This document shows, piece after piece, positions 25,234 to 55,591 of a stretch of 64,000 nt of DNA. The translations under genes were made by a program, and so were the position numbers. The stretch's first letter is position 1. Each line of letters opens with the position of its first letter. The notes below the pieces were generated by a model that was given only the letters and a program-made list of their open reading frames with translations, ran no database searches and had not been told where the DNA came from. Source of the stretch: Patescibacteria group bacterium (GTDB taxonomy: Bacteria; Patescibacteriota; Minisyncoccia; Moranbacterales; UBA2206); NCBI GenBank assembly GCA_022711335.1, contig JAKLFF010000004.1:10592-74591 (forward strand), in the 5' to 3' direction.

Positions 25234-25235
25234 CG

Positions 25236-25319
25236 TGCCCAGAAGAGGACTCGAACCTCCAATCCCTTGCGGGAACCAGTTCCTAAGACTGGCGCGTATA
25301 CCAATTCCGCCATCTGGGC
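25236..25319 (-). tRNA. tRNA-Leu(TAG)
   Basis: 84 nt; long variable arm; anticodon loop CUUAGGA. Confidence 0.75.
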
Positions 25320-25331
25320 ATTTGCAAAGCG

Positions 25332-25415
25332 TGCCTTGAGCGAGACTCGAACTCGCAATCCCTTGCGGGAACATGCTCCTGAAGCATGCGCGTATACCAA
25401 TTCCGCCACCAAGGC
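25332..25415 (-). tRNA. tRNA-Leu(CAG)
   Basis: 84 nt; long variable arm; anticodon loop UUCAGGA. Confidence 0.75.
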
Positions 25416-25419
25416 AATG

Positions 25420-25674
25420 CTACATTTTTTCTTTTAGAATTTCCCTGATTTTTTTTCTTCCAGCACAGCTTTTGTAATATCTTTCCATATATCTAGCCTC
25501 TGCTAGCAAATTGTAATTTTCCTGATAAATTAATTCCATCGGCAATCTATTTTTTGTACTTTCTACCTTGCCTTTTTCATGTTGTGCGAGTCTTCTTTTT
25601 AAATCATCAGTAGAACCAATGTAAGTTTTTCCATCTTTTAAGCTTTTTAAAATATATAGATATCCTGTTATCAT
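25420..25674 (-). CDS. Small GIY-YIG (URI-domain, UPF0213/YhbQ-like) nuclease family protein
   Basis: YLYILKSLKDGKTYIGSTDDLKRRLAQHEKG... Confidence 0.7.
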   Translation of the reverse strand: MITGYLYILKSLKDGKTYIGSTDDLKRRLAQHEKGKVESTKNRLPMELIYQENYNLLAEARYMERYYKSCAGRKKIREILKEKM

Positions 25675-25745
25675 GGCTTTACTAATTCCGCCCGCCTCGC
25701 GTCGACGAGCGGTCGTCTCCGCAAGTCGAGGCGGGCCATCAAGGC
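25675..25745 (-). other. Duplicated 5' fragment of tRNA-Leu (acceptor and D-arm) split by a 44-nt GC-rich nested hairpin
   Basis: The minus strand reads GCCTTGATGGC[hairpin GCCCGCCTCG...CGAGGCGGGC]GGAATTAGTA; compare the start of tRNA-Leu(CAG), GCCTTGGTGGCGGAATTGGTA. Confidence 0.5.
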
Positions 25746-25755
25746 ATTTCTAAAA

Positions 25756-26049
25756 CTAATTCAAAAGCGCGTTTAGCCTTCTCACTTCCTCTTTCAGTAC
25801 TCCCTCGTTCTCATATTCTCCATGATGCCTTGTCCCTTCTCCATAAGTTTCCTTTTTTGCGTCATAATGGATGTTAATTATCATATCAGCTCCTTCCGTT
25901 TTCACATACATATGGAATCTGGGATATCCGGAAGCGGAAAACGGCCGCACAAAACTCATCTCATTCCCCTCGCTTCTCTGAAAGGAATATCCCAACCGAC
26001 GAAGCATGTTCACTGGATTTTCCTTAATATTTTTAACTTCTATTTTCAT
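25756..26049 (-). CDS. Hypothetical protein (97 aa)
   Basis: No motif recognised. Confidence 0.4.
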   Translation of the reverse strand: MKIEVKNIKENPVNMLRRLGYSFQRSEGNEMSFVRPFSASGYPRFHMYVKTEGADMIINIHYDAKKETYGEGTRHHGEYENEGVLKEEVRRLNALLN

Positions 26050-27169: not shown

Positions 27170-27702
27170 CACATTTAAAAAAGAGGCGACGGTGTCCGGC
27201 GGCGTTTCAGCGCCAAAGGAAGAATTGGAAAAACCCAATCGCAAGGAGAGGAGAAATGGGCGTTATTGTGTCTTGTTCCAAATGGAAAATTTATAATAAT
27301 ACAGTCACCGTCCCGGCCACCTGCAACCGCAACACCGGCTGAGCGACCCGTGGGCGCCCGCCAGACTGACGATGTCTGGCTAGTCAGCCCTGGGAAATGG
27401 CCGTAGTGTAACCGCCGTCCGCGCCCCCTCCGAGCAAGCCTCGGACCAGTCCACAAGGGACATTGGGCGCGGCCGGCACACACAGCATTTGCCCGCCATC
27501 GTCTGCGCGGGCAGAAAGGACAAATATGCGCCGCATACCCTTTTCAGGGTTGAGAACCAACGTCTCAGCGACGCAACCGGATGTCTGCAATCCAGACTCT
27601 AGTCCCGTGAATAGGCCCCGCTCCACGGAATTTACGCCACTGGAGCCGCCACGAATTTAGGACGTATTAGGGACGCAGTCTGATTGCAGACGTCACCCAG
27701 CA
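27170..27702 (+). ncRNA. Candidate structured noncoding RNA of unknown class (about 450-570 nt, about 60% GC)
   Basis: No ORF over 102 aa in any frame; many local hairpins; bracketed by a consensus promoter and a strong intrinsic terminator; GC content far above the flanking DNA. Confidence 0.45.
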
Positions 27703-27741
27703 GAGCCCAAGAGTTCTCAACTCTCGGGCTCATTTTTTTTA
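27703..27741 (+). terminator. Intrinsic terminator
   Basis: GAGCCCAAGAG...CTCTCGGGCTC hairpin followed by a T8 run. Confidence 0.75.
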
Positions 27742-27796: not shown

Positions 27797-27846
27797 CATT
27801 CCCGCGAAAGCCTGCCTGTCCGGTAGGCAGGCAGGAATCTAGTTAT
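27797..27846 (+). promoter_or_regulatory. Hairpin-A-like leader element (partial copy of the two-hairpin motif, with an inserted sub-hairpin)
   Basis: GTCATTCCCGCGAAAGC[CTGCCTGTCCGGTAGGCAGGCAG]GAATCTAG directly upstream of the rarA ATG. Confidence 0.4.
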
Positions 27847-55098: not shown

Positions 55099-55173
55099 TG
55101 GTGGGACCAGCTGGATTCGAACCAGCGACCAAGCGGTTATGAGCCGCCTGCTCTACCACTGAGCTATGGTCCC
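55099..55173 (-). tRNA. tRNA-Met(CAT) (elongator or tRNA-Ile2)
   Basis: GGGACCATAGCTCAGTGGTAGAGC...; anticodon loop CUCAUAA; CCA encoded. Confidence 0.75.
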
Positions 55174-55443
55174 CAAATATTTTCTTAATTTTTTTCTTAA
55201 ATCCTCTCGACCTTTTGTTGTTTTATAATATTTTTCATTTCTTTCTGCGTCCTCTTTCTCAGAAAAACATTCATAATAAATCAGCTTGACCGGCAACCTC
55301 TTGCTAGTTGATTTAACCTTTCCTTCCTTGTGTTGATTATATCTTAATTTCAGATTACTCATAAAACCTATATAAAATTTGTTGTCTTTTAAACTTAGCA
55401 ATATGTAAACAAAAAACATACTTTTTACGATTATGCCCAGCAA
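55153..55443 (-). CDS. Small GIY-YIG (URI-domain, UPF0213/YhbQ-like) nuclease family protein (copy 2)
   Basis: FFVYILLSLKDNKFYIGFMSNLKLRYNQHKEG...; the last 7 codons (KYLGTIAQW, then TAG) are encoded by the 5' part of tRNA-Met; the real start is probably the internal Met (MFFVYIL). Confidence 0.65.
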   Translation of the reverse strand: MLGIIVKSMFFVYILLSLKDNKFYIGFMSNLKLRYNQHKEGKVKSTSKRLPVKLIYYECFSEKEDAERNEKYYKTTKGREDLRKKLRKYLGTIAQW

Positions 55444-55445
55444 AC

Positions 55446-55470
55446 TTGCTGGGCTACCGCTGAGCTATGG
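55446..55470 (-). other. Duplicated 5' fragment of tRNA-Met (acceptor and D-arm), followed by the hairpin CCCAGCAA...TTGCTGGG
   Basis: CGGGACCATAGCTCAGCGGTAG matches the first 21 nt of tRNA-Met with one substitution. Confidence 0.5.
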
Positions 55471-55475
55471 TCCCG

Positions 55476-55549
55476 TGGGCTCGTCCAGACTCGAACTGGA
55501 GACCTCGTCGATGTCAACGACGCACTCTAACCAACTGAGCTACGAGCCC
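55476..55549 (-). tRNA. tRNA-Val(GAC)
   Basis: GGGCTCGTAGCTCAGTTGGTTAGAG...; anticodon loop UUGACAU. Confidence 0.8.
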
Positions 55550-55591
55550 GGATAACATAATAATCTTATTTCAAAAAAAGAGTTTGGTCAA

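Follow-up and report, generated by a model that had tools for sequence, protein, structure and literature searches.

The T4 SegB protein is a free-standing GIY-YIG homing endonuclease whose gene lies inside a tRNA gene cluster (PMC2330249). GIY-YIG open reading frames (ORFs) have also been found in non-intron insertions of rRNA genes from bacteria that belong to the candidate phyla radiation (CPR), at the tops or bases of stem-loops (PMC11270868). Here, a cassette is described that consists of a small GIY-YIG ORF placed between an intact tRNA gene and a partial, palindrome-disrupted copy of the same gene. It was detected at two loci in a 64-kb stretch (64,000 nt, hereafter the window; 39.6% GC, 15 tRNA genes) of contig JAKLFF010000004.1 from a Patescibacteria group bacterium, and it recurs across numerous ultra-small bacteria of the CPR.

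The Seg endonucleases, the attachment (att) repeats of integrating elements, and the repetitive extragenic palindromic (REP) sequences with their REP-associated tyrosine transposases (RAYT) each have one feature in common with the cassette, and each has a defining feature that the cassette lacks. As with the T-even Seg endonucleases, the GIY-YIG gene lies between genes and not in an intron, is associated with tRNA genes, and shows presence/absence polymorphism; the spread of Seg genes is thought to use recombination with flanking homology. However, Seg proteins comprise about 200 amino acids (aa) or more with a DNA-binding domain, whereas the cassette ORFs encode a bare Slx1/UPF0213 domain of ~85 aa. 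Seg loci carry neither a partial duplication of the neighbouring gene nor a palindrome, and the cassettes, unlike Seg genes, are chromosomal and long-lived, mostly co-diverge with the host, and were not found in viral contigs.

In tRNA islands and prophages made by integrases (attL/attR), direct repeats of part of a tRNA likewise flank the insert, and the tRNA is kept intact, its displaced part being supplied or duplicated. In contrast to these islands, no tyrosine or serine integrase is present in the cassette, the GIY-YIG gene being the only ORF between the repeats of an insert of ~300-400 bp. The duplication usually comprises the 5' part, the redundant copy contains a conserved palindrome, and the repeat is homogenised with the tRNA. 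REP/RAYT systems also combine conserved palindrome ends with a dedicated nuclease gene and its cognate hairpins, but the enzyme there is of the HUH/Y1 and not the GIY-YIG type, and the cassette palindromes are confined to pseudo-tRNA copies beside the nuclease gene instead of being dispersed intergenically. Mobile GC-rich palindromic clusters occur in the AT-rich genomes of fungal mitochondria; the cassette palindromes are similarly GC-rich in an AT-rich genome.

The rRNA insertions (PMC11270868) share with the cassette the CPR hosts and a GIY-YIG gene in structural RNA genes without a recognisable intron; they differ in that they interrupt the rRNA genes, no target duplication is described for them, and tRNA is never mentioned. 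A tRNA intron of the group I, group II or bulge-helix-bulge type was rejected for the cassette, since an uninterrupted tRNA is present and no Rfam intron match was obtained even at E<=1. In the literature searched, which included work on Patescibacteria tRNA introns, CPR rRNA insertions and the GIY-YIG superfamily, no description of a tRNA-linked GIY-YIG cassette with partial tRNA duplication and palindrome was found.

Structure and recurrence of the cassette

Locus 1 lies on the minus strand of the window. Positions 1-10 of tRNA-Leu(CAG) are repeated there at 25736..25745 (GCCTTGATGG, 9/10 identity to the intact gene), followed by a GC-rich, nested palindrome of 45 nt (family A, CCCGCCTCG...CGAGGCGGG; 25691..25735), which splits the partial copy, and by tRNA positions 11-21 at 25680..25690 (CGGAATTAGTA, 10/11 identity). 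With the palindrome removed, the copy matches positions 1-21 at 19/21; one of the changes, G7>A, converts the pair G.U66 into A-U. Owing to a GG ambiguity, the palindrome may have been inserted anywhere from between positions 8 and 9 to between positions 10 and 11. Its folding energy is about -26 kcal/mol for either strand. A 5-nt tail (AAGCC) separates the partial copy from the GIY-YIG ORF (25420..25674, 84 aa; Pfam PF01541, 48.7 bits, E=9e-13), and the intact tRNA-Leu(CAG) (25331..25415; Rfam tRNA, 52.8 bits) starts 4 nt past the stop codon. The intact tRNA-Leu(TAG) at 25235..25319 is an empty site in the window and is occupied in the syntenic locus L002. A protein identical to the locus 1 product is recorded from Candidatus Moranbacteria.

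The first-pass annotation had described this order of tRNA 5' fragment, GC-rich hairpin, GIY-YIG ORF and intact tRNA-Leu, and coordinates and matches bear it out. The copy of the tRNA 5' end to which it had assigned 26 nt is genuine, its actual length being 21 nt. The statement that a second locus has the same arrangement also held, with a palindrome that substitutes for tRNA positions 22-33.

At locus 2, also on the minus strand, a partial copy of tRNA-Met(CAT) positions 1-21 (55454..55474, 20/21 identity) begins 0 nt after tRNA-Val(GAC) (55475..55549), which lies directly upstream of the unit. The replaced positions are taken by an 18-nt family D palindrome (CCCAGCAAGTTTGCTGGG, 55436..55453). 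Homology resumes with positions 34-41 from the region of the anticodon loop (CATAATCG, 55428..55435, 7/8 identity; 8/8 in L084), and an 8-nt tail leads to the ATG of the GIY-YIG ORF (55153..55419, 88 aa; Pfam GIY-YIG, 53.7 bits). The last 21 nt of this ORF lie inside the intact tRNA-Met(CAT) (55099..55173; Rfam tRNA, 75.2 bits), so that the TAG stop codon corresponds to tRNA positions 19-21. Together, the two units occupy 2 of the 15 tRNA genes of the window.

For an assessment of recurrence, about 95 loci (numbered with the prefix L) were fetched, 80 from a metagenome scan with alignment of close homologues and 15 from later look-ups; they contained 73 distinct homologous ORFs. The stop codon lay at most 60 nt from position 1 of a co-oriented tRNA in 57 of 91 ORF matches scored, most stops falling between -21 and +26 nt, and every scored tRNA that adjoined an ORF had the orientation of the ORF. 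The first 11 nt of the downstream tRNA recurred upstream of the ORF with at least 10/11 identity in 39 of these 57 pairs, 45-137 nt 5' of the ATG. Mismatched pairings of tRNA and locus, used as a control, yielded this recurrence in 17 of 1099 cases. Chance similarity of the fragments, which the first-pass annotation had considered as an objection to its own reading, is thereby excluded, and the question whether small GIY-YIG genes are preceded by a fragment of the tRNA that follows them finds its answer in a systematic link.

Automatic classification assigned 43 of the 73 ORFs (35 fragment-ORF-tRNA, 3 arrays, 5 tRNA-ORF-3' fragment); about ten more were assigned to these layouts by eye, and seven were located at contig ends. 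The upstream form alone was associated with 14 tRNA species. In gap-tolerant alignments, the upstream piece spanned the tRNA from position 1 through a position N that ranged from about 15 to 42. The fragments showed 0-2 mismatches across 20-50 nt and were always derived from the local tRNA. GC-rich palindromes, one or two per fragment and 18-70 nt long, interrupted them, and tRNA homology resumed behind each palindrome. A simple target-site duplication of fixed length was rejected, as the repeats range from ~15 to >100 nt and tRNA homology resumes past the palindrome. The start of the repeat at exactly tRNA position 1 was likewise discarded as a mechanistic clue, because the non-conserved leader of old units would have diverged anyway.

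Duplication of the tRNA 5' portion, as first proposed, is thus one form and not the only one: in a mirror form (L009, L013-15, L061, L067, L096, L097/98), an intact tRNA is followed by the ORF and by a 3' fragment of the identical tRNA with the palindrome in the T-arm. Further variants were tandem arrays (L030, L061, L078, L016, L075), two distinct ORF lineages stacked at one tRNA (L016, L047), and solo or full-length pseudo-tRNAs with a palindrome beside intact genes (L035, L041, L063, L098). In all forms, tandem copies of a single tRNA gene flank the ORF on its two sides; one copy is intact, and the other is truncated on the side of the ORF and disrupted by a palindrome. This architecture is firm; the mechanism set out below is inferred.

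Some individual loci deserve mention. (Near-)full-length tRNA copies with the clade palindrome in the D-loop were located at L035:1790-2400, L041:815-935 and L063:325-445, the last with a palindrome also in the T-arm; the syntenic relative L046 is without the extra pseudo-tRNA copy. L072 (1900-2450) has the mirror layout but lacks a GC palindrome, and the 34-nt 3' fragment downstream matches tRNA-Ile perfectly; its unit sits between tRNA-Ile(GAT) and tRNA-Ala(TGC), as in an rRNA-operon spacer, in a high-GC and probably non-CPR genome. The members at L086 and L090 have no tRNA link, and at L088 an isolated 3' tRNA-like fragment lies upstream of the ORF in a phage-like context. The member P0203 (L090:1480-1770, also L091 and L092), which is not tRNA-linked, lies between glyS and a gene for a 525-aa protein. 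The 3' ends of glyS and of the GIY-YIG ORF supply the two arms of a 16-nt inverted repeat (CACCCTGTTAAATAAA / TTTATTTAACAGGGTG) that brackets this member.

Palindromes, nuclease and persistence

The hairpin was first described as an interruption of the D-stem. It is not incidental: the palindrome proved to be a near-obligatory, ORF-clade-specific and sequence-conserved component of the unit. The families, namely A (as at locus 1), A2 (CCCGTCTCG...CGAGGCGGA), B (a perfect 20-mer, CCTGCCTGCCGGCAGGCAGG), C (CCCGTCCCG...) and D (CCCNGCAAGCTTGCNGGG), track the clades of the ORF tree and neither tRNA identity nor configuration. In family A, the outer 9-bp stem was invariant in 11 of 13 aligned members, without covariation, around a variable interior. 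The palindromes of L018 and L034 were identical at 33 of 34 positions, while the synonymous sites of their ORFs were saturated. Folding energies showed no bias for the sense strand (21 vs 15, p=0.13). The lack of strand bias, combined with conservation at the sequence level, indicates palindromes of the DNA type, as expected of a protein recognition site.

Insertions were located in the D-loop (27), at the D-loop/D-stem (6), in the T-loop (4), and in a few cases elsewhere; those in loops kept G18G19 and T54-C56 intact, and no target-site duplication was seen. Some fragments (L027, L032, L048, L024) contained one or two independent insertions. The family D palindrome of locus 2 was found at the identical tRNA-Met position in L084/L085 and in L096, and also in the tRNA-Phe units L097/L098. 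Integron attC sites, CRISPR repeats and terminators were ruled out by sequence and position, and an RNA-specific hairpin as the sole explanation was ruled out by the absent strand bias. Rfam models matched neither fragment nor palindrome, whether the gathering threshold was applied or the limit was relaxed to E<=1.

Within the 64 kb of the window, the hairpin of locus 1 is the only complete one of type A. A stand-alone, family-B-like palindrome (CCTGCCTGCCTACCGGACAGGCAGG) was noticed at 27812-27836 on the minus strand; it is intergenic, with no obvious tRNA fragment around it and no GIY-YIG gene adjoining it. It adjoins a non-coding, strongly GC-rich stretch of ~430 nt (27300-27730), which had no above-threshold Rfam match and gave weak matches to small RNAs only (E 0.1-0.7), and which looks like a structured RNA not yet recognised.

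Both window ORFs scored well above the Pfam GIY-YIG cutoff of 22.6 bits and comprise this single domain. Among 28 sequences, Tyr18, Gly20, Arg28 and Glu64 were invariant, and Tyr7 and His32 were present in at least 90%. In comparisons of the family profile with solved structures, the UPF0213 proteins BH0048 and EF2693 matched best (1zg2, E=3e-12; 1ywl, E=4e-10), followed by SLX1 (E=1e-3 to 0.08); I-TevI was a weak match. The model of group I intron endonucleases (TIGR01453) reached 26.2 bits against a cutoff of 56, and covered residues 6-38 only. By sequence, the ORF is a minimal stand-alone nuclease domain of the bacterial Slx1/UPF0213 branch. It resembles UPF0213/YhbQ and eukaryotic Slx1 in its best structural matches, minimal domain and conserved catalytic residues; Slx1, however, needs Slx4 and a RING/PHD domain, whereas the cassette ORFs are single-domain. 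The prokaryotic Slx1-like branch has been described as the minimal stand-alone form (Dunin-Horkawicz et al., PMC1564403), and an Slx1-like fusion with the tRNA Gm18 methyltransferase TrmH was noted in the same work. For the bacterial UPF0213 branch, the literature searched offered no function, no tRNA-gene linkage and no cognate DNA element.

When 1.84 billion cluster representatives were searched with a profile, 2,402 sequences matched at E<=1e-10. Among the best 150 of these 2,402, 55 gene calls had an N-terminal extension, and 19 of the 55 extensions contained translated tRNA-arm or family-A palindrome motifs, compared to 2 expected after shuffling. The tRNA linkage therefore reaches well past the loci inspected. 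Such over-extension is an annotation artefact that can be used as a marker of the architecture; among the database calls P0003, P0004 and P0249-P0398, many are over-extended by residues that are translated tRNA or palindrome, e.g. 'MAELVYALVLGTSSRKGLRVRV' or 'ARLDS...RREAG'. No relatives were detected in the viral contigs scanned. Comparison with PADLOC and PHROGs returned weak, generic GIY-YIG or homing-endonuclease matches only, and no known defence system.

Comparison with relatives lacking the unit, which the first-pass annotation had recommended, revealed syntenic sites that are filled in one locus and empty in another. In L002, a locus syntenic with locus 1, a second unit stands before tRNA-Leu(TAG), where the window is empty; both have an 11-nt spacer and an identical tRNA at this place, and the second unit of L002 is made up of repeated tRNA positions 1-10, a palindrome, an ORF and 4 nt. 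L047 has one unit more than L060 and forms a second filled/empty pair, and the solo pseudo-copy of L098 is absent from L097. Presence was patchy even among close relatives. A search for an empty counterpart of locus 2 through homologues of its XerD-like neighbour established none, the P0039 locus, with a 293-nt gap after xerD, being a candidate only. This XerD-like gene lies outside the tRNA repeats and has many close homologues; no such gene adjoins locus 1.

Although filled/empty pairs exist, most syntenic pairs co-diverge with host genes. Identities of GIY-YIG and flanking proteins in syntenic pairs were 95/93, 88/89, 86/85, 81/85, 73/79, 71/72 and 54/52%, and the ratio of nonsynonymous to synonymous substitution rates (dN/dS) of the ORFs was 0.08-0.37, as under purifying selection (0.15 for the locus 1 ORF and its L002 ortholog). 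On these grounds, most units are long-term residents that are vertically inherited and selectively maintained. The partial copies share lineage-specific changes in the acceptor and anticodon stems with their own tRNA, and in the tandem units of L030 the ends (fragment, palindrome, ORF ends) are 98-99% identical whereas the synonymous divergence (dS) of the ORF interior is 0.72. The fragments are therefore not decaying insertion scars: either recombination with the tRNA homogenises the partial copy, or selection retains it. The first-pass annotation had suggested a tRNA-targeting mobile unit that duplicates part of its target upon insertion. The systematic tRNA link, the filled/empty sites and the stacking agree with tRNA targeting; a passive target duplication does not fit, and the units are mostly old residents.

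In a side observation, L097 and L098 (1100-1200) were found to be identical in the ORF and downstream of it, and to diverge upstream exactly within the first nucleotides of tRNA-Phe; the L097 tRNA-Phe acceptor strand (GCCGCGG) would mispair at position 5. The tRNA/pseudo-tRNA repeats may serve as break-points of rearrangements.

Proposed mechanism and alternatives

The reading preferred here, to which we give an even chance, is that of a long-lived selfish or semi-domesticated cassette, in which a nuclease gene between tandem tRNA copies is driven by recombination and the palindrome is the likely nuclease site. Such a cassette would enter, leave and amplify via homologous recombination between the tRNA repeats, by Campbell-type integration and excision of a unit of ORF and pseudo-tRNA as well as by unequal exchange. 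A crossover 5' of the palindrome would produce the order fragment-ORF-tRNA, and a crossover 3' of the palindrome the order tRNA-ORF-fragment. Repeated exchange would hold the partial copy identical to the local tRNA up to the palindrome, but not across it, the palindrome being a heterology that would never be passed into the essential tRNA copy. The palindrome would most likely be the cognate DNA site of the nuclease and would stimulate the exchanges; once installed, a cassette would persist for long periods, mostly by vertical inheritance.

Three points mark the palindrome as the putative nuclease site: it is conserved in sequence, it co-varies with the ORF clade, and Slx1 is structure-specific. 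Recombination between the repeats is supported by the occurrence of one family D palindrome at one tRNA-Met position in both configurations (window and L084 vs L096), and further by the filled and empty sites, the arrays, the solo pseudo-tRNAs, the homogeneous ends of the L030 units and the lineage-specific stem changes common to fragment and tRNA. Excision, circles and nuclease activity at the cassettes are putative.

Several points weigh against this recombination mechanism. Campbell-type integration leaves unexplained how a unit gains a partial copy of a new tRNA species, and clade B was found on six tRNA species, each fragment matching locally. If the palindrome were cut and the break mended from the intact tRNA, the palindrome should be lost, and for repeats of 10-35 nt recombination is expected to be inefficient. 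Selection for a role at the RNA level is another possible cause of the nearly identical fragments. Finally, some members are not located beside a tRNA or are without a fragment (L020-22, L029/L036, L090, L086).

Classical intron-less homing is an unlikely alternative in our estimate. The enzyme would cut an unoccupied tRNA gene in a loop, and synthesis-dependent strand annealing from the partial copy of the donor would give the recipient the palindrome and the ORF together with a new 5' part, so that the palindrome would mark a disrupted and hence immune site. GIY-YIG enzymes do include free-standing homing endonucleases such as T4 SegB (PMC2330249), and the presence/absence polymorphism agrees with homing, as do the palindromes at conserved loop positions without target-site duplication. 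Arrays would be expected from re-cutting of the intact copy. Against homing, the intact tRNA of an occupied allele equals that of the empty allele and would thus still be cleavable. The insertion positions vary among tRNAs, with no common recognition sequence apparent, and the protein is a bare catalytic domain of ~85 aa lacking a DNA-binding domain, with 26 bits against the TIGR01453 cutoff of 56. Moreover, the donor-derived 5' acceptor strand predicted after a switch of tRNA species was absent in the two L002 units, and the distribution is largely congruent with host divergence.

The mode of expression bears on a second alternative. A promoter-like site was detected upstream of tRNA-Val at locus 2 (55591..55563), and none between fragment and ORF. 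In view of the lack of an evident promoter of its own and the constant co-orientation, the ORF is probably expressed as a passenger of tRNA transcription. Many units have their stop codon within the tRNA, with gaps of -10, -13, -15, -16 and -21 nt; it is a TAG at tRNA positions 8-10 or 19-21 in the window (55153-55173) and in many related loci, e.g. L018, L034, L057, L062 and L071. RNase P cleavage at position 1 would leave a non-stop mRNA in such units, and either the unprocessed precursor is translated or the product is tagged by transfer-messenger RNA (tmRNA).

The partial copy and hairpin could act in cis in the tRNA-ORF co-transcript, which we regard as quite improbable. The distal acceptor strand would compete for the other half of the tRNA and delay RNase P or 3' processing in favour of ORF translation; in a variant, the mRNA ends would be stabilised in a tmRNA-like closed structure. 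Strict co-orientation without an internal promoter-like site and the stop codons within the tRNA are in line with such a role, and so is the minimum-free-energy structure predicted for the transcript of locus 1, in which the distal fragment strand pairs with the 3' acceptor strand of the tRNA. G7>A, which turns G.U into A-U, occurs in L068 as well as in the window, the palindromes spare G18G19 and T54-C56, and fragment conservation is far above the neutral expectation. However, 14 fragment mismatches fall in stems that have their partner strand outside the fragment, and the putative pairing is broken by 9 of them and preserved by 5. The palindrome stems are conserved in sequence, with neither covariation nor a sense-strand bias, the two configurations place the palindrome on opposite sides of the ORF (5' or 3'), palindromes occur in solo pseudo-tRNAs without an ORF, and there is no Rfam family match. 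The broken pairings and the misfit of the 3' form also leave without support the alternative offered by the first-pass annotation, in which the gene had co-opted a tRNA-like leader for RNase P processing.

It is very unlikely that the palindromes are autonomous elements similar to miniature inverted-repeat transposable elements (MITEs) or REP sequences, which would prefer tRNA-like DNA, survive only in dispensable copies, and co-occur with the GIY-YIG gene secondarily. Invariant inverted-repeat ends around a variable interior would suit such elements, as would the independent insertions in some fragments, the palindromes in ORF-less pseudo-tRNAs, and the stand-alone B-like palindrome at 27812-27836. 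Against this, the palindrome family follows the ORF clade across tRNA species, the single complete A-type copy of the window lies inside the unit, no transposase is associated apart from the GIY-YIG ORF, and insertion occurred without target-site duplication. An equally improbable proposal, that of a domesticated host nuclease for the upkeep or repair of heavily transcribed tRNA genes or for RNA processing, with the fragments as by-products, would account for the strong purifying selection, the long co-divergence with host genes, the several tRNA-tied paralogs per genome (window; L096) and the hint at a tRNA link that can be read from Dunin-Horkawicz et al. (PMC1564403), but it is at odds with the patchy presence even in close relatives, the stacking of different lineages at one tRNA (L016, L047), the occupation of merely 2 of 15 window tRNA genes, and the lack of any known defence-system match beyond weak GIY-YIG domain matches.

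Significance for CPR genomes and the UPF0213 family

The preferred recombination-driven cassette would mean that an essential, highly transcribed gene can be occupied by a small selfish or semi-domesticated one that uses neither intron nor integrase, by means of a partial duplicate of the host gene. The layout explains many over-extended gene calls and pseudo-tRNA fragments in CPR assemblies, and suggests how duplicated tRNA genes, tandem arrays and rearrangement break-points may arise. The solved structures of UPF0213/YhbQ proteins were deposited as hypothetical proteins only, and the syntax of the cassette makes the activity directly testable.

More tentatively, and with some doubt on our part, the cassettes may constitute a distinct class, in which a palindrome-specific minimal GIY-YIG nuclease and its cognate palindrome would give rise to partial tandem duplicates of tRNA genes and sustain them, with the element residing between the two copies, with expression from the tRNA promoter and with the pseudo-copy acting as a portable homology arm and initiator of recombination. 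If true, this would be the first biological role for the widespread UPF0213/YhbQ family, and would provide a natural source of compact palindrome-directed nucleases and, in CPR genomes, of duplicated and rearranged tRNA genes.

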